Source: Pirellulales bacterium (lineage in GTDB: Bacteria > Planctomycetota > Planctomycetia > Pirellulales > PALSA-1355). Taken from it: DNA of 64,000 bases. Both the position numbers and the translations under genes were made by a program. Of the stretch, positions 47,668-64,000 are shown piece after piece (position 1 is the first letter of the stretch; each line of letters opens with the position of its first letter). Where the stretch lies: the NCBI GenBank assembly GCA_035496575.1, contig DATJEN010000143.1:19120-83119 (forward strand), read 5' to 3'. The notes beneath the pieces were generated by a model. That model made no database searches and was not told the DNA's origin. It saw only the letters and a list, made by a program, of their open reading frames with translations.

Positions 47668-48786
47668 TCAGCGATACACGTGTTGGTCGCGCAGCAAACA
47701 GAAAAGTCGCCAGGGGGTTCGGGTGGCGTCTCGTAAAGCCGTCTCGCGGACCAGGTGTCGCGTAGACCGCCATAGCCGTCGCATACTGTGCGCGCCCGGA
47801 ACCCTATCCACGGCTCCCTCCGATACGGGAACCGTGCCGGTCATGAGGCTTTGCTTGAATCGCTCTGGGCCCGTGCCCAGGTCGATTCGTGTGACACCCA
47901 AACTCGGTGCAGCCTCAATGAGCTTCAGCAGCACCTGATAGCCCGGAGAATATCGCGCGAACGCCGGGTTGTAAGCCGTCGCCCAAAGGTGCAGCACGCC
48001 ATTTGATCGCATGCAATAGGTGGCTGCCAACAGCTCGTCGCCAACCCGTAATGCAGACACCATGCCGCACAATGCCTTGTCGCTGAACTCGATCAGGCGT
48101 CGAAATAATCGGTCGATCCACGAAATCGAAAAGTAGTCGATCACCAGGGTCCGGTGGCACTGTGTGCTCTTCCACGCCATCAACGATTTGAGCACGAACG
48201 GATCGGATGTATTGATTTCAAAATGCGCGCACCCGACTTCGCGTTCGAGCTTGCGCAGCTTTTGAAAGGATTGCTTGATGGCCTTTACGCCGGCGTCGTT
48301 TCGACTGGCGCAATATGATGCGAAGCCGGCCGACGTGTCAATGTACGGCGAATTTCGCACCGTCCATTCGTAAGGCTCAAAAGCGGACGCACGACGAGCA
48401 AGGTGATTGAAGTGCCACGCCGTCAGACCACAGCTCCGTAGCAGCCGCCGAGGGTCGACGGCGTATCCGGGTCGAATGATCATGCCGTGAAAATCGGACA
48501 TGCCGCACCCGACAGGATATCCCACGTGTCCCCAGCGTCGCTCGAAAGGAAAAAACGCGACTTCCCGGCCGTCCTCTTCGACAAACGCAACTTCGACGCC
48601 GCCGCGAATCTGGTCGACAACACGGGCGAATTCCGCTCGAAAAAAAGGACTGTCCAGACCGCCGTCGGCGGATTGGATCTTATTCCATGTGGATAACTGA
48701 TCGGCCGTAAGCTCCCTGAATGGGACGACCTCAATTCTCCCCGATCCCTGATTAATTCGAGAGTTGTGACTCAGAGTTGTCTTCAT
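47668..48786 (-). CDS. CelD/BcsL-like GNAT-fold acyltransferase (FemAB-like)
   Basis: 372 aa. …FRELTADQLSTWNKIQSADGGLDSPFFRAEFARVV…VAFFPFERR… shows the layout typical of CelD-type proteins in polysaccharide loci. Confidence 0.7.
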   Translation of the reverse strand: MKTTLSHNSRINQGSGRIEVVPFRELTADQLSTWNKIQSADGGLDSPFFRAEFARVVDQIRGGVEVAFVEEDGREVAFFPFERRWGHVGYPVGCGMSDFHGMIIRPGYAVDPRRLLRSCGLTAWHFNHLARRASAFEPYEWTVRNSPYIDTSAGFASYCASRNDAGVKAIKQSFQKLRKLEREVGCAHFEINTSDPFVLKSLMAWKSTQCHRTLVIDYFSISWIDRLFRRLIEFSDKALCGMVSALRVGDELLAATYCMRSNGVLHLWATAYNPAFARYSPGYQVLLKLIEAAPSLGVTRIDLGTGPERFKQSLMTGTVPVSEGAVDRVPGAHSMRRLWRSTRHLVRETALRDATRTPWRLFCLLRDQHVYR

Positions 48787-48917
48787 GAAATAAACGCACT
48801 TCGCCTGTTACCGCAAAAACAACCGAGACGACTTACGGGACTGAACAAATAGCCCAAGTAGCGAGGTGCGCTGGGTGCGACTCGGGAATCGCGACCCAGC
48901 ACCCCTCATGTCCACTG

Positions 48918-49910
48918 TCAGGCAACGACCGACGCGCGCTCCGCCAGATATTGCTCGCGAATCCACGCATATGTTTTGGCCATGCCGTCGCGTAGTCGAA
49001 TTGACGGCTCCCAGCCAAGGTATTTCTGGATTTTGGTGTTGTCGCTGTTGCGGCCATTGACTCCCTTGGGAGCGTCGAGCTGGTAGTTGCGCTCGAGCTT
49101 GACGCCGGCGATGTCTTCGACGAGATCCACCAATCCGTTGATCGTCACCAGCTCGCTTGAGCCGAGATTGATCGGCTCGAGGATGTCGCTGTCCATGATG
49201 GCATTGATGCCTTGGATGCAATCATCGATATACATAAAGCTGCGCGTCTGATTGCCGTCGCCCCAGATATCGATCGAATGGTCGCCGGTCTCGACGGCGT
49301 GGAGGACCTTGCGGCAGATGGCTGCCGGGGCCTTCTCGCGGCCGCCCTGCCACGTGCCGTTCGGCCCATACACGTTATGGAAGCGAGCGACACGGGTGGC
49401 GATTCCAAAATCTTCGCGGAAGTGCCGGCACATCCGCTCTGAAAAGAGTTTCTCCCAGCCGTATCCATCCTCGGGCATCGCCGGATACGCGTCTTCCTCC
49501 TTCAAGGCGGTGACTTGGTAATCTCGTTGTTTATCTGCGTTGTAGACACAGGCCGAGCTGGCGTAGAAGTAGCGTTGAACGCCGGCCTCCTTGGAAGCCA
49601 TGAGCAGATGAGTGTTGATCAGAACGGATAGCATGCACAGGCCTTTATTGTTCTCGATGAAGCCCATGCCGCCCATGTCGGCCGCCAGATTGAAAACGCG
49701 GTCCACACCGCGACAAGCCATCTCGCAAGCCTCCTTTTCTTGCAGGTCGGCGCAAATATTGTCGGCGCCGTCAAACACCTGATACCATTCGTCGAACGGC
49801 TTCACGTCTACTGCGCGAACATCGGAAAAGCCGCGGGCGAGCAGGTCGGCGACCAGGTGACCTCCGATGAAGCCACCCGCACCGGCCACGAGGACTGTAC
49901 GATTCGACAT
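48918..49910 (-). CDS. GDP-mannose 3,5-epimerase-like NAD-dependent epimerase
   Basis: Start MSNRTVLVAGAGGFIGGHL. Long blocks are nearly identical to plant GME as I recall it: VFNLAADMGGMGFI, FYASSACVY, RFHNVYGPNGTWQGGREKAPAAICRK, GDGNQTRSF, GVNGRNSDN. Confidence 0.85.
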   Translation of the reverse strand: MSNRTVLVAGAGGFIGGHLVADLLARGFSDVRAVDVKPFDEWYQVFDGADNICADLQEKEACEMACRGVDRVFNLAADMGGMGFIENNKGLCMLSVLINTHLLMASKEAGVQRYFYASSACVYNADKQRDYQVTALKEEDAYPAMPEDGYGWEKLFSERMCRHFREDFGIATRVARFHNVYGPNGTWQGGREKAPAAICRKVLHAVETGDHSIDIWGDGNQTRSFMYIDDCIQGINAIMDSDILEPINLGSSELVTINGLVDLVEDIAGVKLERNYQLDAPKGVNGRNSDNTKIQKYLGWEPSIRLRDGMAKTYAWIREQYLAERASVVA

Positions 49911-49996
49911 GATGATTCTTCCTTTCGTCGAGTAAGTGTTATTCAAGTTGCAGTTGAAATCAAAGTCTCGCTTGTCTCTTTGACGTCCGAAGCGCG

Positions 49997-50824
49997 TCAG
50001 GTCTGGCCATTGATGGTCGCGGGCGTCTTGGCTGGGCGGCCGAGCACCCGCTGGCGGAAGAGCTGCGCGGCCAGCTTCCGCAGGTAGATTGAGTTCGTCA
50101 CCAGATACCTCTTCCACAGCCGCTTCGGCTCCTGGTAAAGCCGAAACACCCAGGCCAGGCCGCGCCGCTGCATCCACAAGGGAGCAGGCGGCTTGGTGCC
50201 TGCCAGGAAATCAAACGCGGCCCCGACGCAGAGTTGCACCGGAATGATTCGATCTGCATGCTCAGCGGCAAAATGGTCTTGCTTCGGGCAACCCAGCCCG
50301 ACGAACATCAAGCCCGCGCCGCTGGCATTGACGCGCTCGACCATGGCCGCGTCCTCTTCGGGGGTTAGCCGGCGAAACGGAGGCGACTCGACATCGGCAA
50401 TGATGAGCCGCGGAAATTGCTCCTTCAGATTGCTCGCGAGTGCGGCAAGCGTCTCGGGTGAACTGCCATAGAGATAGATCGAGACGCCACTGGCGGCCGC
50501 CCGCTCGCAAAGCGCCAACGTCAGCTCGTAGCCTTGGAGTGTATTGCTGACGCGCGTGCCGTGTATCCAGTTGAGTGCCCAGCGGACCGGCTGACCGTCG
50601 GGAGCGACGATGGCAAAACGATTCACCTTCGTCGCCAGCTCGCGCGACGAGCAGGCTTCGATGAGGGCATGCACCGCAAAGGCGGACACCACGGCGGGAA
50701 TACGTCGCTCGGCGGCTTCGAGGATCGCGTCGGCCGCTTCGTCGCATGTTACGGCACTGACACCTACGCCGAACACATTATGCTTGGCAGGCCATTGGAG
50801 TGCTGTTGGATTGGCATCGATCAT
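49997..50824 (-). CDS. WecG/TagA/CpsF-family (GT26) glycosyltransferase
   Basis: …NVFGVGVSAVTCDEAADAIL…VSAFAVHALIEA…FAIVAPDGQPVRWAL…LYGSSPETL…GLGCPKQDHF…. Confidence 0.88.
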   Translation of the reverse strand: MIDANPTALQWPAKHNVFGVGVSAVTCDEAADAILEAAERRIPAVVSAFAVHALIEACSSRELATKVNRFAIVAPDGQPVRWALNWIHGTRVSNTLQGYELTLALCERAAASGVSIYLYGSSPETLAALASNLKEQFPRLIIADVESPPFRRLTPEEDAAMVERVNASGAGLMFVGLGCPKQDHFAAEHADRIIPVQLCVGAAFDFLAGTKPPAPLWMQRRGLAWVFRLYQEPKRLWKRYLVTNSIYLRKLAAQLFRQRVLGRPAKTPATINGQT

Positions 50825-50967
50825 GGTGTTGACACCTCGGGAAAGCTCGTAAGACCTACGATGTCCGGAGCAAAAGTTGCCTGGCAGTTACCGGCCGCGG
50901 GGGCTCTCAGTGTTTAACAACGGCTTCAAGAAGATGCGGCTAACATTTGTACGCCTTCCGAAAACTT

Positions 50968-52227
50968 CTAGGGAACGACTGCAATTGCGTTCTGGTTTGA
51001 TGTGACCAAGTTCGACGTCGATTCGGACGAACCAACACCATCTTTTCCACACAGCGATTCGTACACGGAGGCCGTCTGCGCAGCGAGCTTGCGCCAACTG
51101 TATTTCTTTTGGACAGCGAGCCAGCCTGCTTCTCCCAGCGATTGGCATTCCTGCGGGTCGGCAAGTAAGCGACAGAGCAATTTGGCCAGCTCGTCCGGGG
51201 ACTGTTCCGACAACCAGCCGTTGACACCTTCCTGCACGATGCTGGCCACTGGTGGAATTCGGCCACCAATAACTGCCTTCCGATGCGACCATGCCTCGAC
51301 GAAAACTCCGCCGAAGCTTTCCTGCACAGAAGGAACGCAAAGCAACTCGCAAGCAGCGATCGCGGAGGTTTTGGTTTCCAGGTCGACCTTTCCCAAGTTC
51401 ACCAAGCGCTCGTCACGACATCCTTCGAATATCTGCTTGGAATAGGGCGTAGGCGGGCCAATGAAGACAAAGCGAGTCCGTGGGTGCTTTAACCAGACCC
51501 GATCGGCAGCCTCGACGACCGCGGCAATGCCCTTGTATTTGACTTGCTGACCGACGAAGAGAACAAATGGCTCGTCAAGGTGGTACCGCCGACGAAAATC
51601 CGCTGCAGAGAACCGTTCTGACAGCACTGGGCCGATACCGGTCACGTGGATTCGCTCAGCACGCACGCCTTTCTGCTTTACGAGCAAATCTTTTTCTACT
51701 TCGGTCAGCGCGAAGATCGCATCCGCCGCGCGGTAGATCTTGTCATATTCTCGATACAGGGGGCCCCGCCAACGCTCGTGATGATTTGGCGTGAGTACAA
51801 AAGGAATCTGTCGAGTGCGAGCCATATCCAGCGCGGCGCGGGCCAAGAACTCGCGCCCAATGCGCGAGCAGTGTACGATTTCAGGTGTGCCTGCCTGAGC
51901 GGCAAGTTGTTCACGGATCACACTGGCGAGGTGCCGAACCGCCGGCTTCATGAACATGTAATATGTGGACGCCCACGGCAGCATTCTTAAACGCTGCGTA
52001 CGAGAAAACCCCAGCCGCGCCACCCGCACGTTTTCATGCACGAAGTTGGCAGGCGGTTCTCCGCAAACGGTGCTCAACCTTAGCCAATCTCGGCGGTTAG
52101 TCGTCGACTGCGTCACCACCTGCACTTCATGGCCGAGAGCTTGCATTTGCGCTGCCAGGCAGTGCAAGTGGATCTGCGCGCCCCCAACCGACGGCGGGTA
52201 CATCGTGCTCGTATAAAGAATTTTCAT
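50968..52227 (-). CDS. Glycosyltransferase family 4 (GT-B)
   Basis: MKILYTSTMYPPSVGGAQIHL… and PSVQESFGGVFVEAWSHRKAVIG (E-x7-E region). Confidence 0.9.
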   Translation of the reverse strand: MKILYTSTMYPPSVGGAQIHLHCLAAQMQALGHEVQVVTQSTTNRRDWLRLSTVCGEPPANFVHENVRVARLGFSRTQRLRMLPWASTYYMFMKPAVRHLASVIREQLAAQAGTPEIVHCSRIGREFLARAALDMARTRQIPFVLTPNHHERWRGPLYREYDKIYRAADAIFALTEVEKDLLVKQKGVRAERIHVTGIGPVLSERFSAADFRRRYHLDEPFVLFVGQQVKYKGIAAVVEAADRVWLKHPRTRFVFIGPPTPYSKQIFEGCRDERLVNLGKVDLETKTSAIAACELLCVPSVQESFGGVFVEAWSHRKAVIGGRIPPVASIVQEGVNGWLSEQSPDELAKLLCRLLADPQECQSLGEAGWLAVQKKYSWRKLAAQTASVYESLCGKDGVGSSESTSNLVTSNQNAIAVVP

Positions 52228-52259
52228 TTTGCGTCAAAAGCAAGCTATGTTTTTGCCCA

Positions 52260-53273
52260 TCAGGCGCGCGACAGCGACTCGGCAGCTGCATTTCCGCCGA
52301 GCAACTGGCGTTCTCCACGGAATTCGAGATATTCGCGGTAGACCTTCTGAGCGCACAATCGCGGCGCCAGATAGCGCAGCGCACACCGCATATAACCCTC
52401 AGCGCGCCACAATAAACATCGCCAACCCAGCTCCGCCGCTCGATCGCCCCGTAGCCGCGCGAACAACATGCGCCACAGGTTGACACCCATCGCTTGCATG
52501 AGTCGCGCACCCAAGATTGCGATCAGCATGAAAACTCCGCGGTGAGTTCGGTCACGTTCCGCCGTTGTCCAGCCATTGCGGCGAAAGACCCAGCGGAAGT
52601 AGGTTTCTCTTACGCGATACTCAGGAATGACATGGCGAACGATCGCGAGCGGCGCGTACCAGCCCGTTATTCCTGCCTGCAGCATGCGCAAAAACAGGTC
52701 GCTGTCTTCGCCGGCCTGCCGCAAGGATTCGTTGAATGTGCCGACTTCATCGAAGACGGTGCGCTCAACAAGCATGTTCCCAGTTCCGGGGAACATCTTG
52801 CGCGAATATTTCACTGGCTTGTCCGCGCCGATCGCTTCGCCCAGCAAGCGGCGACAGATTTCGGGCAGCGGCGGGGCCGTGGTAGGAAGCAACAGGTGCA
52901 CAGCGCCCCCCACACAGCGCGCTTTTTCTTTGCGGACCATCTCCAACAGCTCGCGTAGCCAGTTGGGATCGGCCACTTGGTCATCGTCGAAAAAGGCCAC
53001 ATAGCGTCCGCGCGCTTCGGCCACGCCGCGGTTGCGCGCGCAAGCGACGCCCGGCTTGGGCTCGTAGACGCCCCGGAAGGGAACCTTCGCCTCGCGCGCG
53101 ACGTCGGCGACAACCTCCACCGTGGCGTCGGTCGATGCATTGTCGACGACGATCACTTCGTAGCGCCATGATGCGTCGGTCTCGAGCCCCAACAGACTCG
53201 CCAACGCGCCGCGCAGCATCTCGGCGCGGTTGTACGTGCAGATCACAACCGATACGTCAATCTCGTACGTCAT
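52260..53273 (-). CDS. Glycosyltransferase family 2
   Basis: MTYEIDVSVVICTYNRAEML…VVDNASTD…FFDDDQV (DxD). The start ATG overlaps the stop of the upstream gene (ATGA). Confidence 0.9.
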   Translation of the reverse strand: MTYEIDVSVVICTYNRAEMLRGALASLLGLETDASWRYEVIVVDNASTDATVEVVADVAREAKVPFRGVYEPKPGVACARNRGVAEARGRYVAFFDDDQVADPNWLRELLEMVRKEKARCVGGAVHLLLPTTAPPLPEICRRLLGEAIGADKPVKYSRKMFPGTGNMLVERTVFDEVGTFNESLRQAGEDSDLFLRMLQAGITGWYAPLAIVRHVIPEYRVRETYFRWVFRRNGWTTAERDRTHRGVFMLIAILGARLMQAMGVNLWRMLFARLRGDRAAELGWRCLLWRAEGYMRCALRYLAPRLCAQKVYREYLEFRGERQLLGGNAAAESLSRA

Positions 53274-54664
53274 GTGACTATTCCTTCGCGATAGCACCAG
53301 GGCAACTCGGAGGGAATTCCGCGAACCACGGGCAACACGGGGACGCTCTGCGCACGGTCCTCTTCACCCGCACCGAACGGCAATTGAAACATGGCGCACA
53401 GTGTCACCAGGGCAATGAACGACGGTTGGAGCAGGTCGGACTCGGTGAACGCGTTGACTGCGGCAAAGGTGACGAGCGCCAGCAGCAAGCCGTAGCCGGG
53501 ATCCAGCGTGCGGCGATAACGGGCGGCGAAGCGGCCGATTGCCAAGCTGAGCGTAACCGCGAGCATCCCAACCCCGATGAGCCCCGCGGCGATCACCGCG
53601 TCCACATAGGTTGAGTGTGCGTCGGGGATGGGCCAGTAAAAGATCTTCGAAAAATCCTCGGTTCGTTCCGGATCCCAGAACGCCCCGTAGCCATAGCCGG
53701 CCCAGGGTCGTTCCGTGGCGAAATCTAAAAGCTCGGTCCACAGAGGCAAGCGGCCGGTGAGCGACTCGGACTCGTCGGTGCGACCCATAAGTGCGGCTTG
53801 AACCACAGTTTGTTCAACGCTGGTGCCGGAGAGCTCGATGGCAACCGCAGCGGCGCAGGCCGCCATGCCAGCCGCCAGAGCCCAGGGAAGCGCTCGCCGG
53901 CCAGGCACGATCAACCACGACAGAAGAAGAGCCGCCAACAACGCCACCAGCGCCGTACGCGACCTGGTGAGTAGCAGCCCGCACGCCCCAGCGCCGATTG
54001 CGACACCCAACAGCAGGCGATGCGCCGAGCCGCTGCGCAAAAGCGCCAGTGCCGCCAAACACAAGAAACTACAACTAACCGCCAAGTTGTTAGGATGCAC
54101 CATGCCCGCAAAACGGTAACCTTCGGACCAGGGGCGGAAGTGCCCGGTCGCCAGCTCGATCGCGAACGCAAAAGCCAGGTAGGTCGCCGTGAGGGCAACG
54201 AGGGCGCGGGCGAAAGCCAGCGCCGCGAGCTGACGGGCCAGTCCGAGTGCGGCCAGAAATACGCACAAAAGAGTCGTGATGCGCCGTGCCGTCAGATCCG
54301 ATTCGACCGACCAGAAAAGACTCGCCGTGTACCAGGCGAAGAGCCCGCCGCAGGCCAATAGGACAGGGTCGCGCCAATTGAGAGGACGGCCGCGGCCTTG
54401 CAGGCACAAGCAGCCGCCCAACACCCCCAGCGCCAGAAAAGCGACGCGCCTTACGGAGCTGCCCTGCTCGATCGATTCGGCCCGCTCGTCCATCGCGTAG
54501 ATCGCATCATCCGAGAACTCGGCCTCCAAGAACCGCGGATCCTGGTCGATCGCGAAAAACGCAATCCCCAAGAGGATGACCGGCAGCCACGTGCGCAATT
54601 GCCACTCGTCGGCTCCGTGTGGGCGGTTGTAGCTGTCAATCGAAAGGTGGTTCGAGTAGTTCAT
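53270..54664 (-). CDS. O-antigen ligase/polymerase-like (Wzy_C) membrane protein
   Basis: 464 aa with about 10-12 TM segments and a large loop carrying the …HPNNLA… / …HSTYVDAVIAAG… type motifs. Confidence 0.8.
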   Translation of the reverse strand: MNYSNHLSIDSYNRPHGADEWQLRTWLPVILLGIAFFAIDQDPRFLEAEFSDDAIYAMDERAESIEQGSSVRRVAFLALGVLGGCLCLQGRGRPLNWRDPVLLACGGLFAWYTASLFWSVESDLTARRITTLLCVFLAALGLARQLAALAFARALVALTATYLAFAFAIELATGHFRPWSEGYRFAGMVHPNNLAVSCSFLCLAALALLRSGSAHRLLLGVAIGAGACGLLLTRSRTALVALLAALLLSWLIVPGRRALPWALAAGMAACAAAVAIELSGTSVEQTVVQAALMGRTDESESLTGRLPLWTELLDFATERPWAGYGYGAFWDPERTEDFSKIFYWPIPDAHSTYVDAVIAAGLIGVGMLAVTLSLAIGRFAARYRRTLDPGYGLLLALVTFAAVNAFTESDLLQPSFIALVTLCAMFQLPFGAGEEDRAQSVPVLPVVRGIPSELPWCYREGIVT

Positions 54665-54668
54665 AGGC

Positions 54669-56057
54669 TCAAGCGGAAAGGCTGTGCGAATTCAACTGAA
54701 TTTGTTCGTCCGAATGCAAAACGAGCGTCTCCCGGGCGGACTCAAACACTCGCACGAGCGTCGCCGTGCGCACGACCGCCGCCGTCGATGTCCCCGCCAG
54801 TGATGCCAGCGCGGCGCCCAGGGCGCCATACGAGGGGACCAGGAACGCAGCAGCCACGACCGTTACAATGAGACCGCAGAAATCCGCTACAAAATTCGCG
54901 CGCGGCTGCTCGAGCGCCCACAGTCCATTGCCGGCGACCATTCCCATCGCGGTCATCAGGGCACTGAGGCCAAGACAGACCAGAATGGCGCCGGAGTCAC
55001 GGAACAGTTCCCCGTACAGAAACACAGCCAGGGAACCGCCCGCCACGAGCAGCACGAGCGAAAAAGTGCCCAACAAGAGGGCTAAGAACGAGGCCGCGAG
55101 TACGAGCACTCGGCGCAGCTCTTGGGTGCCACCGAGGACGAAAGCTTGTGCTGCGCGCGGGGTCAGCACGCGATCGACGCCCCCTTGCAGCACATTGGAA
55201 AGTCCCACCAGCGTGGCGCACGCGCCGAACATTCCCACGGCCGCCGGGCCGGCGGCCAGACCGAGAATCCAGGGCATGATGTACGGGGTCGTATTGCCGA
55301 CCAGGTAACTGCGCAGGGCCCACTTTCCAAACGACCAATTGTGCTTCCAGTCGGCAAAAAATCGCTGCCGCGATAGCCGCGCGTTGGGCGGGTCGAACAC
55401 AAACCAGCTCAACGCAGCCAACGCACACGCCCCGCCCATGACGCCGTAAATAGTGAAGATCGAAAGGCCGCCGTAGCGGGCCAAAAGCAGCAGACCGCTG
55501 CATTGCGCGGCAGCGACGACGAGATCGACGCCGATCGCCGATACGATGTGCAAGTTGGCCAGCGCGAAACGACGGATTCCCTCGCGCAGCAGGAGCAAAG
55601 GCCCCGCTCCCGCCAGTGCCCACAGGCCTGGCACGATCAGCCCGCCGCCGGCCAGGGACAAGAGGGCGATCGTGCCCAACAGGACGATCAATCCCACAGT
55701 GGTCAACGCCACGTGGTGCAAGAAGGCGCTGCCGGCGTACTCGGTCAGGTCGTGTCCGCTGCGTCGCTTGGAGTAGATCGTATAGGGAGCGGCAACCAGA
55801 TGCTCCTGAATCCCGGTGGCGACGATGATGATGCTCAGAATCAGGTAGTACAGACCGACCTGGTCAGGCGAGATCGTGCGATTGATGATGATGGCGGTGA
55901 CGAGGCTCGTGCCACTCACTACTGCCTGATCGAAAATCGACAGCAGTCCGTCCCAGGCCAACGGAAAGCGCCGGCCCAATTCGAGCAACCGTCCCCTCAC
56001 CAATGCGCCCGCAACCGCGCCACGCACATCGGGGATTTCAATAAGGTCGGATTTCAT
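54669..56057 (-). CDS. Polysaccharide flippase (Wzx/MOP superfamily)
   Basis: Polytopic, 12 or more TM segments. I prefer the start MKSDLIEIPD… at 56057 to the track start at 56270. Confidence 0.8.
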   Translation of the reverse strand: MKSDLIEIPDVRGAVAGALVRGRLLELGRRFPLAWDGLLSIFDQAVVSGTSLVTAIIINRTISPDQVGLYYLILSIIIVATGIQEHLVAAPYTIYSKRRSGHDLTEYAGSAFLHHVALTTVGLIVLLGTIALLSLAGGGLIVPGLWALAGAGPLLLLREGIRRFALANLHIVSAIGVDLVVAAAQCSGLLLLARYGGLSIFTIYGVMGGACALAALSWFVFDPPNARLSRQRFFADWKHNWSFGKWALRSYLVGNTTPYIMPWILGLAAGPAAVGMFGACATLVGLSNVLQGGVDRVLTPRAAQAFVLGGTQELRRVLVLAASFLALLLGTFSLVLLVAGGSLAVFLYGELFRDSGAILVCLGLSALMTAMGMVAGNGLWALEQPRANFVADFCGLIVTVVAAAFLVPSYGALGAALASLAGTSTAAVVRTATLVRVFESARETLVLHSDEQIQLNSHSLSA

Positions 56058-56095
56058 ATGTGATTCCGAGTTCGAATTGCGAACAGTCGACTCGG

Positions 56096-57064
56096 TTAGA
56101 GACAAGACAATTGAGACTGTCGGGTCGCGTGTCGTTTCGGCAATCGCATGAACCGCTTGATGGGACGGGTGAGGACTTGCCGCGCCTTGACGGCGGTCGT
56201 GTACCAGCCGGTAAGCATCGACGCTAGGACCTCGGGTGTGTCGTCCGCGTCGACTTGAAAGCGTCCCCACTGGAATGGATCATCCTCGATCATGGCGCGC
56301 TGCGGACGCGTGGAGAACGAGCAGGCCACGCCGGCTCGCCGGGCCGATTCAATCAACGGGGGCGTGATCTCACCGAAGGGAAAGGCGAACGCGGGGTGTG
56401 CAATCCCGAAGCGGTCGCGCAACACGTCGAGACATTGCTTTAAGTCGCGCTCGAACTGTTCGCGTCGCCCGGCGAACCGCTCATGGGTATGGGTATGCGC
56501 GCCCAGATCGACCAGCCCCTCGGCCAGGATGGCGCGGCATTCGTCGGTCGAGAGCGGCCGCCAGCACTCGGCAGGTACGCGCGGTGAACCTGCCGCCGAC
56601 CAATCGTCGAACGGAAACGGGGTGTCGCCGTCCAGGTACTTGGTGGCCACAAAAATCGTGGCGGGAATGTTCAGCTCTCGCAGGACGGGGTATGCGCCCG
56701 AGTAATTGTTCTGATATCCGTCATCGAAGGTGACGGCAAAAACGTGCGAGGGCACCCGCTGTGAATTACGATGAGCGGCCACCAGCCTCGAGAGGGACCA
56801 CGCCTGGAAGCCGCGCTCGAGCAGCCCGGCCAATTGGACCCGCAACCGGTCGGGAGTCACGTTCCACGTGGGAACATCGACGCCCGGCACGTGGTCGCAA
56901 ACGCGATGGTACATCAGGATGCCGAACTTCTCATCCGGCCGCGCGCCAAACATGGCGTGCAACCTGGCGGCCAGCCGGCCGGTGCTTCGCGTGCTCATAC
57001 GCCGCAAGCCGTCCAGGGGAGCGTACTGGCGCGCCGTCCGAAATATGCCACGGTTGTCGTCCAT
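56096..57064 (-). CDS. Polysaccharide deacetylase (NodB/CE4) family protein
   Basis: …ILMYHRV…VTFDDGYQNNY…PATIFV…GAHTHTH… I prefer the start at 57064. Confidence 0.85.
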   Translation of the reverse strand: MDDNRGIFRTARQYAPLDGLRRMSTRSTGRLAARLHAMFGARPDEKFGILMYHRVCDHVPGVDVPTWNVTPDRLRVQLAGLLERGFQAWSLSRLVAAHRNSQRVPSHVFAVTFDDGYQNNYSGAYPVLRELNIPATIFVATKYLDGDTPFPFDDWSAAGSPRVPAECWRPLSTDECRAILAEGLVDLGAHTHTHERFAGRREQFERDLKQCLDVLRDRFGIAHPAFAFPFGEITPPLIESARRAGVACSFSTRPQRAMIEDDPFQWGRFQVDADDTPEVLASMLTGWYTTAVKARQVLTRPIKRFMRLPKRHATRQSQLSCL

Positions 57065-57098
57065 AGATGTTTCCCCGCGCTGCGCACAGCCGCGATGT

Positions 57099-58166
57099 TC
57101 AACAGGCGCCGCGGCGAAGCAACACGGCCGGCATGGTCTGGGCAATCAACTTGACGTCGTTGATCAGCGAGCGCGACCGGATGTATTCAATATCCATGCG
57201 GATCCAGTCGCAGAACGAGACGGCCGAACGGCCGCGCACTTGCCAGATGCACGTCAATCCGGAGGTGACGTCGAGGCGGCGGAGCTGCCATTGTTCGCAG
57301 CGGTCGGACTCGTCGCACGGCAAGGGCCGCGGACCCACCACAGACATGTCTCCGAGCAATACATTGACGAGCTGCGGCAGTTCGTCAATGCTCGTTTTCC
57401 GCAGGAATCGACCCAACGCCGTCACGCGTGGATCTTTTGCGAGCTTGAACGCGGGGCCGTCCTGCTCGCTGAATCTCAAAAGCGCCGTCTTGCGCTGTTC
57501 GGCATTGGCGGCCATGGTGCGGAACTTATACATCATGAATTTGCGCCCGCCGATCGTGTGCCGACGCTGCTTAAAGATGACGGGGCCAGGCGAAGTGAGC
57601 TTGATCGCCACGGCGACGGCCAGCAACAAAGGAGCGGCCAATACCAGGGCCACACTCGCGCCGATCACGTCGATGGCACGTTTCCAGGCGGGCATCGGGC
57701 GAACGAACAATGTGTGCATGGGCCGAGAAATGCGGTCTTCCTCGGGCTGCTCCGCTTCTTCACCAACCAATACTTCTTCCGGCTGCTCGTCGCTGGGATA
57801 CGCGAACACCTCGCATTTTGGCCGGGGCAGCTCGTGCGGCATCAGCTCACACAGGTCATCTGCCAATTTCCAAGCGCCGGCCACTGGCGTCTCGGGAAGG
57901 ATGACGCCAATCGCGCGGGCGCTCCAGATTCCGGCGTCATCCGTGATCCGCAGCCGATCCCGCAGCGTGCGCGCAATCGCCGTCAGGTTGGAATCGCTCA
58001 GGCGCGCGGAGAACGTGAGTGTCAGCAGCGAAAAACTAGCGTTCCCACGGTCACAGCGCATGCGTTCACGTTCGAGCAAGGCCTGCAGGCGCTCGGCCGA
58101 TTGCAGAAAATCACTTGCACACTTCAACTGCGGCCTGCGCCAGCTATCGAGCATTCTTCGAATCAT
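57099..58166 (-). CDS. Priming polyprenyl-phosphate sugar-phosphate transferase (Bac_transf) with an N-terminal degenerate GGDEF-like domain
   Basis: The C-terminal part reads …KRAIDVIGASVALVLAAPLLL…FKQRRHTIGGRKFMMYKFRTM…DPRVTALGRFLRKTSIDELPQLVNVLLGDMSVVGPRP. The N-terminal 130 aa read …RERMRCDRGNASFSLLTLTF…LRDRLRITDDAGIWSARAIGVILPETPVAGAWKLADDL. Confidence 0.85.
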   Translation of the reverse strand: MIRRMLDSWRRPQLKCASDFLQSAERLQALLERERMRCDRGNASFSLLTLTFSARLSDSNLTAIARTLRDRLRITDDAGIWSARAIGVILPETPVAGAWKLADDLCELMPHELPRPKCEVFAYPSDEQPEEVLVGEEAEQPEEDRISRPMHTLFVRPMPAWKRAIDVIGASVALVLAAPLLLAVAVAIKLTSPGPVIFKQRRHTIGGRKFMMYKFRTMAANAEQRKTALLRFSEQDGPAFKLAKDPRVTALGRFLRKTSIDELPQLVNVLLGDMSVVGPRPLPCDESDRCEQWQLRRLDVTSGLTCIWQVRGRSAVSFCDWIRMDIEYIRSRSLINDVKLIAQTMPAVLLRRGAC

Positions 58167-58290
58167 GCTAGTTTGTTCGTTCTCGGTCTGGATGGGGTAC
58201 GAGAATGTCTAGCCGGTTGCAAATTTGCCCCAGGTCTGTGCCTCACGTGCCGGTCGACACCGAGTTCTAAAGCGCGAGCTACCGCCGCCC

Positions 58291-58965
58291 TTAGAGCCTC
58301 GATGCGAGCCAACCGGGTAAGTGTTGCGGACGTTTGTTGAGGATGGCTCCCAGAACATTCGCTTGCGCATGAACCAAGTGCTCTCGTGCCTGGGCTGCCG
58401 CCTGCGCGTGTGTCCGCTCTGCTTCCATGACGAGCACAACTCCGTGGAGCAGGCCCGCCGTGGCGATGCAGAACTCGGAGTTCGCGGTCGGCAGGTCGAC
58501 CACGATGAAGCTGAAGTCGGATTCCAACGTACTTAGAAGATCACGCAGATCGTCGCGATTGAGCTGGCCGATCGCATCGTTGCGCCGGCTGTCGACCACC
58601 AGCCGCGACAGGTTGCCAATCGACGTGAGCTCAACCTGTTCCGCTAAGGGCAACAAGCCGTCCGGCGATTGCGACAAGCGACCCGCGACCGACCAAGACC
58701 ATCCGACCGCCGCCCGACTCAAGTCGAAAAGCAACACCGGTTGGTCGCCGGCCTGCGCTGCCGCAGTCGCCAGCTGCTGGGCCACCGTACTTACGCCGGC
58801 GCCCGGGCTGCAGCTTGTAATCCCCACGATCCGCGCGCCCTCGGGCGCCGCGCCGGCCGGGCTGCGCAGCCAATGGGCCATGGCGTAGTACTGTGCGGCG
58901 ACGGGAACGATACGGCCGGCGCGCGCCGCCGAGGTACGGATTTGTTCTTCAGTTAACGTAATCAT
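58291..58965 (-). CDS. CpsD/CapB-type (BY-kinase-like) P-loop ATPase domain protein, degenerate Walker A
   Basis: …ARIVGITSCSPGAGVSTVAQQLATAAAQAGDQPVLLFDLS…FSFIVVDLP…VVLVMEAERT… The fold pattern matches MinD/BY-kinase, but the Walker-A Lys is Val and there is no C-terminal Tyr cluster. Confidence 0.75.
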   Translation of the reverse strand: MITLTEEQIRTSAARAGRIVPVAAQYYAMAHWLRSPAGAAPEGARIVGITSCSPGAGVSTVAQQLATAAAQAGDQPVLLFDLSRAAVGWSWSVAGRLSQSPDGLLPLAEQVELTSIGNLSRLVVDSRRNDAIGQLNRDDLRDLLSTLESDFSFIVVDLPTANSEFCIATAGLLHGVVLVMEAERTHAQAAAQAREHLVHAQANVLGAILNKRPQHLPGWLASRL

Positions 58966-58976
58966 CCCGATGGCCC

Positions 58977-60536
58977 TTAGTTGTGCAGTAATTCCTGACG
59001 AGCCCCGCGCGGAACGGAAAACAACACGGGAACACCCAGCTCGTGCTCAACCTGCTCGGGCGTCTTCAATGATGGATCAAAGAATTCGGCCAAGAACGCC
59101 ACGCAAACGGCACCAAGTAATGCGAACAGCACGCCACCGGCCAACACGATGCGCGTCATCGGGCTGGCAGGCTGGCCTACCAGCGAAGCCGGCTGCACCA
59201 CGTTCACGTTCGAAATGCGGCCCACTTCCAGAGCCTGGTCGATGCGAGCTTGCTCGCGGTTGTTCGCATAGTCGCGATAGTTGGCCTCGAGCAGCTCCAC
59301 CTTGCGGTTGAGTTGCGCAATGTGATATTCGTTGTCGTTCATGCCGCGAATGCGATGCTCGATCGCCGCGCGTTGAGCCTGCAACGACTTGGCCTCGGCC
59401 CGATAAGCGGCTGCCTCGGCCTTGGCGCTCAGCAAGTCGTTGTGAACGCCCTGGTGGACGGGGCTCAGCCTTCGTGTCTGTTGATTGTGGCGCGGCTCTT
59501 GCCCCGCGAGGATCTTTTCCATTTCAGCCACTTGCCGCCTCAAGACGATCACGTGAGGATGCTCGGCAGTGCCCCGCGAGCTGGCTTCTTTCTCCTGGAT
59601 TTGCAGCTTGTACAGCTCGTTCCGCATGGCATCCGCCGCGGCGCTCGGCACGTCCGTGTCCTCGGCGACCAACTGGGGAGGCAGCTCCTTAAGCGCGTCG
59701 CTCAAAGCCGCGATCTTCGCTTCCGAAGACGCCAAAGCTCGTTCGTTCGCCAGTACCGCAAGCTCAAGCGCATTGGCCTGGGATTGCACGTTTTCCTGCT
59801 GGCCGTTGATCGAAACCAACATCGTCTTGTTCTTCGCGTCGCGGAGTTCCTGGGTTGCCGTTTCCAGCTGCTGGCGAAGCAAATTCGACTGTTCCACGAA
59901 AAAGTCAAACGATCCCGACGTACGGTTGGCCTTCGCATGTCGCACCATGTACGCATCGAGGTAAGCCTGCAGCAGTTGCTGGGCTTTCTCGGGCCGCTTG
60001 GCGGTGCATTTGATGAAGATCACGTTCGACTTACGCGGCGATGTAACCGTCAACGACTTCTCAAACTTGTTGACAGCCCGCTCTCGATCGGTGATCCCGC
60101 CATTAAGCCACGTGCGTGCGATCGCCAACGGCGCCGTCACGGTGTCGAACCAGGTGGGCTCCTGGCCGGCGTTATTGTTGAGCACCAGATCGGCGCCCAG
60201 ACGATCGACTACGTCTTCATACAGCGCGCGGCTACGCAGAATCTCCAGCTCGGAATTAATTTCGTGCTCGCGCGAACCCTCGATGTCGACGTTCTGGCTC
60301 AAGTTGGCGGTCGGATCGAGCGAAACGCTTTCTTTTCCCATGCGGACAAACAAGCGCGCGTCGGAGATGTAAGTGCGCGGCCACGCGATCAGGCCCACGA
60401 CCACCAGCGCACAAGTGCCGAGGAAGAATGCGGCCATCTTGCCCTTATGCCGGAACAGCACGCGACAGATGTCGCGAACGCTTGAATTCGGTCGATGGGG
60501 GGGCTGATTTCCGTTGGAAGGGGTGCGTGTGACCAT
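58977..60536 (-). CDS. Polysaccharide chain-length determinant / co-polymerase (GumC/Wzz, PCP family)
   Basis: An N-terminal TM segment (MAAFFLGTCALVVVGLIAW), a long coiled-coil periplasmic region, and a C-terminal TM segment (IVLAGGVLFALLGAVCVAFLAEF). Confidence 0.85.
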   Translation of the reverse strand: MVTRTPSNGNQPPHRPNSSVRDICRVLFRHKGKMAAFFLGTCALVVVGLIAWPRTYISDARLFVRMGKESVSLDPTANLSQNVDIEGSREHEINSELEILRSRALYEDVVDRLGADLVLNNNAGQEPTWFDTVTAPLAIARTWLNGGITDRERAVNKFEKSLTVTSPRKSNVIFIKCTAKRPEKAQQLLQAYLDAYMVRHAKANRTSGSFDFFVEQSNLLRQQLETATQELRDAKNKTMLVSINGQQENVQSQANALELAVLANERALASSEAKIAALSDALKELPPQLVAEDTDVPSAAADAMRNELYKLQIQEKEASSRGTAEHPHVIVLRRQVAEMEKILAGQEPRHNQQTRRLSPVHQGVHNDLLSAKAEAAAYRAEAKSLQAQRAAIEHRIRGMNDNEYHIAQLNRKVELLEANYRDYANNREQARIDQALEVGRISNVNVVQPASLVGQPASPMTRIVLAGGVLFALLGAVCVAFLAEFFDPSLKTPEQVEHELGVPVLFSVPRGARQELLHN

Positions 60537-61721: not shown

Positions 61722-62477
61722 CTAGGTGCGAACCGCTCCATCGGTCGTCGCGGCGGTTGAATCGCTGCGCAATTCCCAGCGAATTCCTTCCCCGGTCCCG
61801 TCGCCCATGAATCGCACGAGCATGCGCTTCTGTTTGCGATTGAGCGCTTTGATCGTATCGTGCAATCGCCTGCGGGAGTCGATCTCCGGAACCGGTGGAA
61901 GCGGATCGTCGATGCGGGGCGGCCAGCTCTCTTCCTCGAACGCCATCAGCACGGTTTCTTGATTCGGCGACGGCAGCTTGAATTCCTTGACGACTTCGTT
62001 CCCGACGCGAAGTTGTCGGCGCTGTTGGTCCCACTTCAACCCAGGCCCGTCAATCGATCCACGCGCATTAGAAGCTTGAGCGGAAGTCGATTGTGCCGCT
62101 GGGGCGAGCGTGGCTTCGCGCGCCAGGGCAACCCCAGTTTCGGTCAAAATGAAACACAAATCGCGCTCGGGTCGCAGGAGCGCTGTGTGTCGAAAGCGCC
62201 GCGCGGAGTCGTGCGACGTGCTGATCTCGATGGCGTGCGCGACGTAGCCCTTGGCCGCTAACCACCGCAGGTCGCTATGCGTCAACCTGGCATCACGCAG
62301 CACCTCGATCTCAACCGCCATATCCCACGCAGATTGGCCGAGCTCCGATGCGTATTCAAACGCCTGCAGTAAAAGCCCAAGCGCTTCGCGCAAGTGAGCC
62401 TTGACATCTGGAGCGGCAGGTGGCCCGGCGCTGGCGGGCGGTGGCTCAAGGGCGGCGATTAGCTCGCTGGTCTGCAT
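61722..62477 (-). CDS. Uncharacterised protein, paralogue A of a divergent pair
   Basis: 251 aa. It shares colinear motifs with 62826..63566: …SDLRWLA…, …LCFIL…, …WD..R..LR.GN.V.K.F..P..N/D.ET.L.AFEE..WP…, …LNR…. Confidence 0.7.
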   Translation of the reverse strand: MQTSELIAALEPPPASAGPPAAPDVKAHLREALGLLLQAFEYASELGQSAWDMAVEIEVLRDARLTHSDLRWLAAKGYVAHAIEISTSHDSARRFRHTALLRPERDLCFILTETGVALAREATLAPAAQSTSAQASNARGSIDGPGLKWDQQRRQLRVGNEVVKEFKLPSPNQETVLMAFEEESWPPRIDDPLPPVPEIDSRRRLHDTIKALNRKQKRMLVRFMGDGTGEGIRWELRSDSTAATTDGAVRT

Positions 62478-62647
62478 GTGGTCGGAGGCGGGAGTGCTCG
62501 TGCAGCTGTGGGGAATGATTGCGGCCGGCCGGGTGCCGGCAAGGGGGTTGGCTGCCTAGAAAAGATAGACCAAATAGTCTATTTATTCCAACCAGATTGC
62601 CAAAAACACGCAATTTTCTACTTAAATTGGGGGATTATTAAGTTGTT

Positions 62648-62757
62648 TGACATCCCTGAAAGCGGCGGTATCATATGTATCGCTTAGGACAAGCTATAGA
62701 AGGGGTAGTAGGCCCAGCAAAGCCGCTTTTTGGGCGGTGCGCGTGGGCTTTTTTTGT
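62648..62757 (+). ncRNA. Candidate small transcript or 5' leader (promoter plus intrinsic terminator) in the paralogue spacer
   Basis: TTGACA-16 nt-TATCAT lies at ~62648-62675. About 40 nt later comes the interrupted stem GCCCAGC…CCGC-tttttgg-GCGG…GCGTGGGC (~62713-62749), followed by TTTTTTT at 62750-62756. No ORF is evident. Confidence 0.35.
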
Positions 62758-62825
62758 TGGGAACAGCGGCTAGCCCAGGCAGCTCCACATGATGTTCAAC
62801 CGAGGATGGTTCTGGAGATGCACTG

Positions 62826-63566
62826 ATGGAAGCGATGGAAGTCGTCACAGCACTGGGTGTGGCACCCCCCGATGCTGTCATTCCCGCTGAACGGCTGCCA
62901 TCTGAAGTTCCGCCTTCGATCGCACCGGGTCTTCATGCGCTGGTTGAGGCGAACCGATACGCCCGTGAGCTCGGCCTAAACGCCTGGAATTTCGCCGTCG
63001 AGGTTAGCTACCTGCGGCACCTGGGACTATCGAACAGCGATCTTCGCTGGCTGGCGTCGGTTCACGCTGTCGAGTATGCCGTCGAGACCACGAAGTCCGA
63101 TTCGTTCGAACGCGCGTTTCGCCGCATGGGGCGACTGACCATCTCGCGGCGGCTGTGCTTCATCTTGTCCCCGCCCGGCGCACTATGGGGCGAGCATCTG
63201 GTGAAGATCGCCGAAAAGCGCGTAGCGCGCAAAGCGCGGAAGGCCGTCGCGCAGGCGCGGCCCGCCGCACAACCGCAGCCCGCTCAAATTCTTCCGCCAG
63301 TTTGGGATCGTAACCGGTTGGAACTCCGCCTTGGTAACAACGTTCTGAAGCGATTCACTGTTCCATCGTGCGATGCGGAAACAATTCTGACTGCCTTCGA
63401 AGAGAGCGGCTGGCCGAAGCAGCTACAGAATCCGCTTGATGATTCGATGTCTTGTGCGGTCGAGCGATTGCTATCGGCGGTCGAAATCCTGAATCGGCAG
63501 CGCCTTCGGCTAGTCCACTTCGAGCTGCAGCCGGACGAGTTAAAAATCGCTTGGAAGTGCGAGTAA
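62826..63566 (+). CDS. Uncharacterised protein, paralogue B of a divergent pair
   Basis: 246 aa, colinear with 61722..62477 (see that entry). Confidence 0.7.
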   Translation: MEAMEVVTALGVAPPDAVIPAERLPSEVPPSIAPGLHALVEANRYARELGLNAWNFAVEVSYLRHLGLSNSDLRWLASVHAVEYAVETTKSDSFERAFRRMGRLTISRRLCFILSPPGALWGEHLVKIAEKRVARKARKAVAQARPAAQPQPAQILPPVWDRNRLELRLGNNVLKRFTVPSCDAETILTAFEESGWPKQLQNPLDDSMSCAVERLLSAVEILNRQRLRLVHFELQPDELKIAWKCE

Positions 63567-63579
63567 CAGCCTTACTCGC
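63559..63579. terminator. 8-bp perfect hairpin overlapping the stop of paralogue B, between convergent genes
   Basis: GCGAGTAA-cagcc-TTACTCGC followed by TTGCC. The U-tract is weak. Confidence 0.4.
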
Positions 63580-63601
63580 TTGCCAGTTCAAGCTTCGCTC
63601 A

Positions 63602-64000
63602 TCACGGAATAAGCGTCGACATGCCGGCGCCAAGCTGGTAGAAGCCGTTGATCGGCGCAACGCCGTAGATGCCTCGAGTGAAGACCAGGTCGATGAAGTT
63701 GTCGGCCCGCAGAATCTTCGACTTGGGCACGATGATCAGATCCGCATCGCTGACCCAGATCTCGCTCGCCGGGCATGGGCGCTTACCCAACAAGGCGGGC
63801 CGCAAGTCGAGCACGGTGGCAATCAACCGCCAGTCGTCAGCCCGGCGGAATACGACCACATGCGTGATTTGCCCGCCCACAGTCCAGCTTCCCGCCATGC
63901 TGATCGCCTGCATCACCGTCGTGGGCGCTTCCAAGGTATAGCGCCCGGGAGCCTTCACTTCACCCAACACGTAGACATATCGCGGAGCCCGCTGCTTGAG
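63602..64000 (-). CDS. Polysaccharide export protein (Wza/SLBB family), C-terminal part; gene continues beyond the right edge
   Basis: The frame is open to position 64000 (…LKQRAPRYVYVLGEVKAPGRYTLEAPTTVMQAISMAGSWT…VVVFRR…IIVPKS…). V.V.GEV..PG.Y plus a soluble-ligand-binding beta-grasp pattern. Confidence 0.8.
   Translation of the reverse strand, partial: LKQRAPRYVYVLGEVKAPGRYTLEAPTTVMQAISMAGSWTVGGQITHVVVFRRADDWRLIATVLDLRPALLGKRPCPASEIWVSDADLIIVPKSKILRADNFIDLVFTRGIYGVAPINGFYQLGAGMSTLIP

Follow-up and report, generated by a model that had tools for sequence, protein, structure and literature searches.

What does a pair of related, divergently transcribed genes do at the head of an exopolysaccharide (EPS) operon, and how is the pair itself controlled? 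The question is raised by a 64-kb stretch of contig DATJEN010000143.1 (assembly GCA_035496575.1; hereafter the window) from a Pirellulales bacterium, in which two genes, A and B, face away from each other between a Wza-like gene and the remaining EPS genes (Table 1). The open reading frames (ORFs) that an initial annotation had delimited for proteins of 251 and 246 residues were recovered unchanged, with all the motifs it had quoted present in their translations, and its view that the two proteins are related along their whole length was borne out by pairwise alignment (BLASTP, 37% identity and 53% positives over 232 residues, E 2e-38). Likewise, the 348-bp spacer between the genes is AT-rich as described (GC content 0.52-0.53 over 300-bp windows, compared with 0.60-0.64 in flanking sequence, and 0.30-0.38 in a core of ~100 bp), and the pair does split the locus, with SLBB domains of a Wza protein encoded on one side and the minus-strand EPS genes lying on the other. 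No third member of the family was found within the window besides A and B. Two observations go beyond that annotation: the spacer is not merely a shared control region, as it bears a promoter-leader-terminator element belonging to B, and an inactive papain-like protein, more than the EPS genes themselves, is the closest companion of the family.

Promoter, leader RNA and terminator upstream of gene B

When the spacer was aligned across the window and five further family loci (L008, L009, L010, L014 and L016), its central block proved to be conserved far above the flanking proteins, and it can still be aligned to species whose B protein is merely ~35-40% identical. Between the window and locus L006 the spacer is 93% identical, with 145 of 150 positions matching in 62578-62727, while the synonymous-site divergence of the neighbouring genes amounts to 0.19-0.32. 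On the plus strand the block carries a sigma-70-type promoter whose TTGACA and -10 elements recur at constant spacing in 12 of 12 leader copies (TTGACA-16/17-TATCAT/TATGCT across species), followed by a short conserved RNA. Within this RNA, the invariant CGCUUAGGA folds as a short hairpin (stem-loop 1, SL1) exposing AGGA in its loop, and the conserved GGGUAGUA, which includes a GGG segment, lies between SL1 and a terminator made of a GC-rich hairpin of 12-14 bp and seven U residues (-25 kcal/mol by RNAfold). In a 12-sequence alignment the outer helix of this terminator is paired in 98.8% of the cells, as opposed to 13-48% in slid controls, with compensatory changes at three of its seven pairs, and RNAalifold concurs with the helix. 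The leader thus displays what defines an intrinsic terminator, namely a GC-rich hairpin directly followed by a U run and maintained through compensatory changes.

An alternative helix of the form GGGN..NCCC, 4-5 bp long, would use the GCCC of the 5' arm of the terminator and belongs to the minimum free energy structure of the nascent RNA in 7 of the 12 copies. At loci L037 and L029 this short helix changes coherently to GAGC..GCUC, and the 3' arm of the terminator becomes GAGC in L037. These features suggest a putative anti-terminator (SL2). Every one of the 12 copies has an AGGA, placed either in the SL1 loop or close to the 5' end, and another AGG(A/G) follows ~15-20 nt downstream. A CsrA homologue is encoded ~5 kb from another family member (L003, 4344-4697; L004, 4348-4455); the presence of CsrA homologues in the phylum bears solely on a speculative reading of the GGA motifs of the leader. 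A small ORF inside the leader was considered and rejected, as it has no conserved start codon.

The element follows B. Two covariance models, built from 8 and 12 sequences and run over 1.39 Mb of family loci, matched at 13 places, each of them 70-170 nt upstream of, and co-oriented with, a B-clade or sister-clade gene, whereas not a single A-clade gene in this set carries the element. All sister-clade copies are preceded by it. The leader stays with B in L013, even though B lies 5.6 kb from A in that locus, it precedes both tandem copies in L025, and in L029 and L037 a leader-bearing member takes the position of A ahead of the papain-like gene and Wzz. The model of 12 copies (R2) found no further leaders in the 1.39 Mb, so the element is not family-wide. 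A pattern scan of metagenomes returned 12 loci, three of them true copies, including a new one (L091) directly upstream of a B-like gene. Rfam gave no match at E ≤ 1 on 62300-63000, none at gathering score across the whole window and none at the leader positions of L091, L010, L025 and L037, and full-text literature searches returned no account of the leader RNA or of the protein family. We therefore regard the leader as an undescribed candidate cis-regulatory element.

Closer to the gene, a GGAG lies 8 nt ahead of the ATG of B. In five species (L008-L016), the sequence separating the leader terminator from the start of B, 40-100 nt ahead of the start codon, is highly conserved and contains a possible upstream ORF (M.APTL.ILSTWRR.HG..) overlapping the start of B in another frame (for example in L009 at ~9611-9690, minus strand). 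This ORF was rejected as a leader peptide: the peptide is conserved only in L008-L016 and is absent from the window and from L091.

On the other side of the spacer, most species have an unusually well conserved promoter upstream of their A orthologue, CTCGACA-N17-TATGAT(TATAAC). Because it aligns under these promoters (alignment A4), the window sequence TTGCCG-16-AATCAT (TTGCCG at 62542-62537 and AATCAT at 62520-62515, minus strand) is probably the promoter of A. In L011, L013, L015, L018, L021 and others the orthologous promoter reads CTCGAC(A/T)-N17-TATGATTATAAC, is preceded by an A tract and lies ~60-110 nt upstream of the gene; in L008-L016, CTCGAC is present twice upstream of the A orthologues, ~17 bp apart. 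The AT-rich core also holds two palindromes that are candidate operators. The perfect one, at 62565-62582, overlaps a weak promoter-like site on the minus strand (62603-62576); it is unique in the window, where 0.5 occurrences are expected by chance, and is conserved only in L006 and L007. The second palindrome (62594-62616) likewise occurs once in the window. An operator shared by the family was considered and rejected, in that the spacers of distant A/B pairs are without the palindromes of the window and only the sigma-70-like promoter blocks are conserved upstream of the A orthologues.

The protein family, its predicted fold and its papain-like neighbour

Neither A nor B matched any Pfam or NCBIfam model at E ≤ 10, in keeping with the failure of the initial annotation to place them in a named family, and no PADLOC, PHROGs or PDB sequence match was obtained with the single proteins or with a 30-sequence profile. 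The family is nevertheless large. A word-indexed search with A returned 922 homologues, every one named hypothetical, with all the named sources being metagenome-assembled genomes of Pirellulales or Planctomycetia, and an exhaustive profile search yielded 5,797 clusters (at 50% identity) at E ≤ 1e-3, of which 1,619 at E ≤ 1e-30. GTDB species representatives contributed 255 loci; the best 80 of these 255 all come from Planctomycetota (Pirellulales, Thermoguttaceae, Pirellulaceae, Planctomicrobium and Laterigemmans), several genomes giving more than one locus, and among the named or GTDB matches listed the taxonomy is Planctomycetota only. Extra N-terminal domains in longer homologues were considered and rejected, as the extensions resemble mis-called start codons in sequences read by eye only. 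A and B thus belong to a large unnamed Planctomycetota family, whose members are probable winged-helix regulators.

This assignment draws on structure prediction. AlphaFold2 (AF2), run with a 30-sequence alignment, gave a model with a mean predicted local distance difference test score (pLDDT) of 85 and two domains, residues 27-124 and 147-236, separated by a disordered linker (131-143), which agrees with the two-module layout proposed in the initial annotation. That annotation had read both halves as winged-helix-like, which holds by fold for the N-terminal half, at low significance, and could not be demonstrated for the C-terminal one. The N domain consists of a helix, a strand, two helices, a beta-wing and a closing helix. 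Searching the whole model against PDB with Foldseek retrieved only MarR-type winged-helix regulators, in weak matches over ~104 columns (best E 0.019, probability 0.94; TM scores 0.29-0.38 on the target, root-mean-square deviations 4-9 Å, E 0.02-0.3), and these are assigned to the N domain because the C domain alone gives no MarR matches. The model thus points weakly to a winged helix in the N domain. The C domain, modelled alone with a 60-sequence alignment (pLDDT 93.8, predicted TM score 0.85), runs from three strands through a helix and a short strand to a long helix and a beta-hairpin. Foldseek found no significant neighbour for it in PDB (best E 1.1) or in BFVD; DNA-binding domains of the OmpR/PhoB family top the PDB list (PhoB 1gxp over 105 columns, TM 0.54/0.52; CosR, TM 0.52), with E values of 1-6 that are not significant. 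In the AF2 model a Pro-rich loop, DDPLPPVPEID, fills the position of the second helix of a helix-turn-helix (HTH), and no helix is predicted between residues 190 and 200. Profile alignment with hhalign showed no relation of the C domain to PhoB/OmpR DNA-binding domains (probability 0.2%, with template sequences entered by hand) or to the N domain of the family itself; both a demonstrable OmpR link and an internal duplication were dropped on this result. No natural OmpR-type domain was matched by tblastn across all fetched loci.

In the family alignment, near-invariant residues lie in DLRWL, within the third N-domain helix, and in R..F of the N-domain wing, and the long C-domain helix, whose net charge is +4 to +6 in A-clade proteins, bears an invariant Asn, Arg and Gln (LNRxQ). 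Such residues are compatible with nucleic-acid recognition. B keeps the LNRxQ, DLRWL and WD..R motifs; in the B clade most of the positive charge of the long C-domain helix is lost (+1 to +4), as is, largely, the wing motif GDGxGEGIRW. The N domains tend to be basic in the B clade and are acidic in A, such that the charge pattern of A and B across the two domains is roughly reciprocal.

Several lines of evidence bear on the age of the pair. A search with B recovered six close orthologues (69-91% identity), the next matches being at most 41% identical. The A/B/Wza arrangement (A leftward, B rightward, Wza leftward) and the 348-bp spacer are shared by two Logan contigs (L006 and L007) and a JGI contig (L098), and another B, 76% identical, is likewise followed by a convergent Wza gene. 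More distantly, a second family member lies divergently ~250-350 bp upstream of the A orthologue in L008, L009, L010, L014 and L016, and at 5.6 kb in L013. In a quick neighbour-joining tree of BLOSUM distances, the second copies of all six of these loci group with B, on long branches, and the first copies group with A, which argues that the duplication predates these lineages. The divergent pair itself recurs in at least seven lineages (L006-L010, L014 and L016). Comparison of the window with L006 gave dN/dS ratios of 0.13 for A and 0.20 for B, so both copies are under purifying selection and neither is a pseudogene, an outcome that the initial annotation had named as counting against its reading. 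On these sequence comparisons, B is an old, faster-evolving paralogue that is intact rather than decayed. A 476-residue protein (P0121, JGI 3300050821) joins a well-conserved family copy head to tail with a divergent one, a possible Rosetta-stone sign of joint action by two paralogues.

We counted the neighbours of the family by tblastn with the window proteins against the best 80 of the 255 GTDB loci, with up to 10 kb of flank each. The most frequent one, above any single EPS gene counted, is the 289-residue protein encoded next to A (38 of 80 loci), its gene lying directly downstream on the same strand in 30 of the 38 and divergently in five. The link to glycan loci on which the initial annotation had staked its interpretation is also seen in these genomes, with Bac_transf in 29 of the 80 loci, deacetylase in 23, Wzz in 22, Wzx in 20, the ATPase in 19 and Wza in 14. 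Nearly all of the closest A orthologues (57-65% identity) retain the order A, 289-residue protein, Wzz, ATPase, Bac_transf, some with Wza immediately upstream on the same strand; distant members often keep the 289-residue partner alone or sit in unrelated contexts. Over its full length the partner is homologous to xylellain, a papain-like peptidase (PDB 3OIS; E 3e-27, residues 11-271), although it scores 17.2 bits against a Pfam threshold of 20.7 bits. In the window protein, Ser, Gln and Ser stand in for the catalytic Cys, His and Asn, respectively, and among 42 homologues the Cys is Ser in 38 and the His is Gln in 36. Its dN/dS of 0.105 denotes strong purifying selection. Judged by these residues, the protein is a conserved pseudo-enzyme partner of the family.

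Table 1. Positions of the A/B pair, its regulatory features and the flanking EPS genes. Coordinates are those of the window except for the last row, which uses those of each locus.
Feature	Position	Strand	Remarks
Gene A	61722-62477	-	251-residue ORF; opens the minus-strand EPS operon
Gene B	62826-63566	+	246-residue ORF; paralogue of A, divergently transcribed
Divergent A/B spacer	62478-62825		348 bp
Sigma-70-type promoter, TTGACA-16-TATCAT	62647-62674	+	11 of 12 consensus matches; drives the leader, probably B
Conserved leader or small RNA, ~75 nt	62680-62755	+	Alignments, RNAalifold, RNAfold, covariance models
SL1 hairpin	62682-62694	+	AGGAC in loop
Possible SL2/anti-terminator	62703-62706 pairing with 62712-62715	+	
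Terminator stem	62712-62748	+	Followed by U run, 62749-62755
Probable A promoter, TTGCCG-16-AATCAT	62515-62542	-	38 nt upstream of A start; inferred, below scan threshold
Perfect palindrome, ATAGAC-N6-GTCTAT	62565-62582		Candidate operator in AT-rich core
Palindrome, AGATTGC-N9-GCAATTT	62594-62616		Candidate operator; half-site resembles that of the first palindrome
Papain-like (xylellain-like) gene, 289 residues	60677-61546	-	No catalytic dyad; conserved downstream partner
Remaining Wzx/Wzy-type EPS operon	47668-60536	-	Pfam scans
Wza/OPX gene, 3' end (SLBB domains)	63602-64000	-	Convergent with B; Pfam SLBB
Leader copies in other loci	L008 9673-9748; L013 4576-4647; L025 9701-9777 and 11908-11989; L037 9760-9841; L091 1562-1638		

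The EPS operon beside the pair comprises 13 genes, with gaps of 175 and then 140 bp between A and the genes that follow it. After A, the minus strand encodes the 289-residue protein, Wzz/GNVR, a ParA-like ATPase, Bac_transf, a polysaccharide deacetylase, a Wzx-like flippase, Wzy, GT2 and GT4 glycosyltransferases, WecG, an epimerase/dehydratase and Acetyltransf_6. Pfam matches include Bac_transf (8.8e-62) and Wzy_C (2e-20), with SLBB at 2.2e-7 and ParA at 2.8e-6, and the matches to GNVR and Polysacc_synt fall slightly under their gathering scores. The locus contains the components of a Wzx/Wzy-dependent system: an initiating transferase, a flippase, a polymerase, a polysaccharide co-polymerase (Wzz), an ATPase or BY-kinase-like protein and an outer membrane polysaccharide export protein (OPX; Wza), the Wza fragment being 88% identical to the 417-residue Poly_export protein of L006. 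The convergent stop codons of B and Wza are 35 bp apart (63566-63602) and no terminator was detected there, so either transcript could run antisense into the other gene. Close to the locus, the window also encodes a TPR-rich, GT41 (O-GlcNAc-transferase-like) protein of 826 residues (36845-39325, plus strand) and a 1,074-residue protein with a PcRGLX-like beta-sandwich domain (40397-43621, minus strand), both glycan-related, and, just beyond the EPS region, a bacterial type IB topoisomerase (Topoisom_I 8.9e-40 and Top1B_N_bact; 43743-44924, plus strand).

How the pair might act on the operon

The reading that best accommodates these results, to which we give a probability of roughly one half, is that A regulates the EPS operon and B modulates A, with the supply of B gated by the leader as an attenuator. 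A, which leads the operon, would be a nucleic-acid-binding regulator that binds spacer DNA and controls the Wzx/Wzy-type genes, probably working together with the adjacent dead papain-like protein, which could be a sensor or a co-factor. B would modulate A, as a heterodimer partner or an antagonist, and not duplicate it. Its transcripts would start at the strong conserved promoter and pass through the ~75-nt leader ending in an intrinsic terminator, so that the amount of B would depend on terminator read-through. A wider proposal, in which the A/B winged-helix pair, the dead papain-like sensor or co-factor and a new class of terminator-based leader gating B by way of a protein or a ligand form an undescribed, Planctomycetota-specific control module that jointly sets the production of surface polysaccharide, is a doubtful one for the time being.

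A number of observations weigh against regulation of the operon by A with B as its modulator. The Pfam, NCBIfam, PDB and hhalign searches tied the proteins to no DNA-binding family by sequence or profile; Foldseek backs the N domain only weakly (E 0.02) and the C domain not at all (E > 1), and in the AF2 model the C domain is also missing the second helix of a helix-turn-helix. Neither palindrome is significant against shuffled sequences, both are confined to the closest relatives, and the lineages share no conserved operator motif. As to the leader, it folds no more stably than shuffled sequence (z -0.18 for the fold energy) and the putative anti-terminator is only 4-5 bp long. Finally, many genomes have A without B, which makes B dispensable for the core function, and the P0121 fusion is a single observation on a 2.5-kb contig.

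Some of the same observations would fit a different role for the proteins, namely that A and B are tandem winged-helix adaptors acting through protein-protein contacts (as in KITE/ScpB/JetB or ESCRT-II) rather than transcription factors, and join the inactive papain-like protein in a cytoplasmic complex whose target would be the EPS machinery, such as the Wzz/ATPase pair. The tightest conserved neighbour is indeed a protein partner, found in more loci than any single EPS gene, ScpB and JetB are among the weak fold matches, the C domain is without a canonical HTH and the N domain of A is acidic. We nonetheless consider such adaptors unlikely: the ScpB/JetB-type matches are non-significant (E 0.5-2.7), the family occurs in multiple copies and in varied contexts without EPS genes, a pattern typical of regulators, and the operon-leading position at a divergent promoter suits nucleic-acid binding, as do the conserved, basic helix and its invariant Asn, Arg and Gln.

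The leader admits two other interpretations. It could be a free-standing small RNA, for instance a sponge of the CsrA type, with A and B being ordinary duplicated regulators that act on different targets without any interplay. That the RNA has a strong promoter and a strong terminator of its own, the AGGA in a short hairpin loop with the second motif downstream in all copies, and the CsrA homologues of related genomes would be in line with this idea, which is somewhat less likely than that of protein adaptors given that the RNA always lies 70-170 nt upstream of a co-oriented family member and never occurs alone in the 1.39 Mb, that the promoter scan detected no second promoter-like site between the leader promoter or terminator and the B start codon from which B might otherwise be transcribed, that two GGA-like motifs are few for a sponge and that complementarity to CGCUUAGGA elsewhere in the window is at chance level. 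Alternatively, B and the sister-clade proteins might bind their own leader RNA (the AGGA loop of SL1 and the GGG segment) and attenuate their own expression, largely independently of A. The confinement of the leader to B-clade and sister-clade genes, its persistence with B when B is separated from A, and the GCCC shared by SL2 and the terminator, with both helices altered coherently in L037 and L029 (GAGC..GCUC..GAGC), speak for such autoregulation, whereas RNA binding by these domains is without support and SL2 is short enough to be fortuitous. Moreover, the leader-bearing sister-clade proteins retain an A-like basic helix, so that no protein feature tracks the leader, and we rate this interpretation as the least probable of those considered.

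Regulation of the operon by A, modulated by B, would matter beyond this locus. Gene regulation is almost uncharted in Planctomycetota, in which surface polysaccharides underlie attachment and aggregate formation, and the family numbers thousands of clusters, yet neither Pfam nor NCBIfam has a model for it and its structure is unsolved. As the family heads a complete Wzx/Wzy operon here, its function is directly testable, the locus supplying a defined spacer, two candidate operators, a paralogue pair and an EPS read-out. The leader adds a candidate for a new cis-regulatory element, one whose promoter and terminator are clear and which is conserved between species, and the pseudo-papain a candidate case of a dead enzyme recruited into regulation. 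Should the inferences fail, the locus would reduce to an ordinary hypothetical gene pair of a lineage-specific family.

Comparison with known systems

MarR-type regulators (ZitR/AdcR 5yi0/5jls, MepR 3eco and MarR 1jgs), the sole class retrieved from PDB, resemble A and B in the order of the N-domain elements. They differ in showing no sequence or profile similarity to the family (Pfam MarR, MarR_2 and HTH_27 are not matched); A and B also carry an unrelated second domain as well as a disordered linker, and the dimerisation helices of MarR are not evident in them. The effector domains of OmpR/PhoB regulators (PhoB 1gxp, RstA 4nhj and PhoP 5ed4) share with the C domain a three-stranded N-terminal sheet, one helix and a short strand, then a long basic helix and a C-terminal hairpin wing, but the match is non-significant (E 1-4) and comes without a Pfam hit to Trans_reg_C, and a Pro-rich loop replaces the second HTH helix; unlike OmpR/PhoB response regulators, A and B are without a receiver domain, their N domain being predicted as a winged helix instead. 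The KITE proteins ScpB, MukE and JetB are not a match either, ScpB scoring E 0.52 and JetB 2.7-4.3, and the neighbours of A and B are EPS genes, not those for SMC and kleisin proteins.

The inactive partner shares the oxyanion-hole Gln and the GxxxxxGY and SWG motifs with xylellain and other C1 peptidases, from which it differs in the replaced catalytic Cys and His; no signal peptide is evident in its translation. Compared with terminator-based leaders and small RNAs of 5' untranslated regions, the B leader has the same succession of a promoter, a short structured RNA, a GC-rich hairpin with a U run and an ORF 70-170 nt downstream, as well as an alternative helix sharing one arm of the terminator; it differs in belonging to no Rfam family and in having no recognisable aptamer or leader peptide. 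In relation to CsrA/RsmA-binding RNAs, it has two AGG(A/G) motifs only, one of them in a hairpin loop.

Among paralogous regulators that are divergently transcribed or act as antagonists, partner switches of the SinR/SlrR type control the eps operon of Bacillus. The A/B pair is similar to these in that two related regulators would lie beside an EPS operon, one conserved and the other fast-evolving, with one protein known in which two copies are fused; it differs in that there is no homology to SinR/SlrR and in that one partner sits behind a terminator-containing leader. In light of these comparisons, the locus is best described as a winged-helix regulator pair from an undescribed family at an EPS operon, accompanied by an undescribed leader RNA and a pseudo-enzyme partner.

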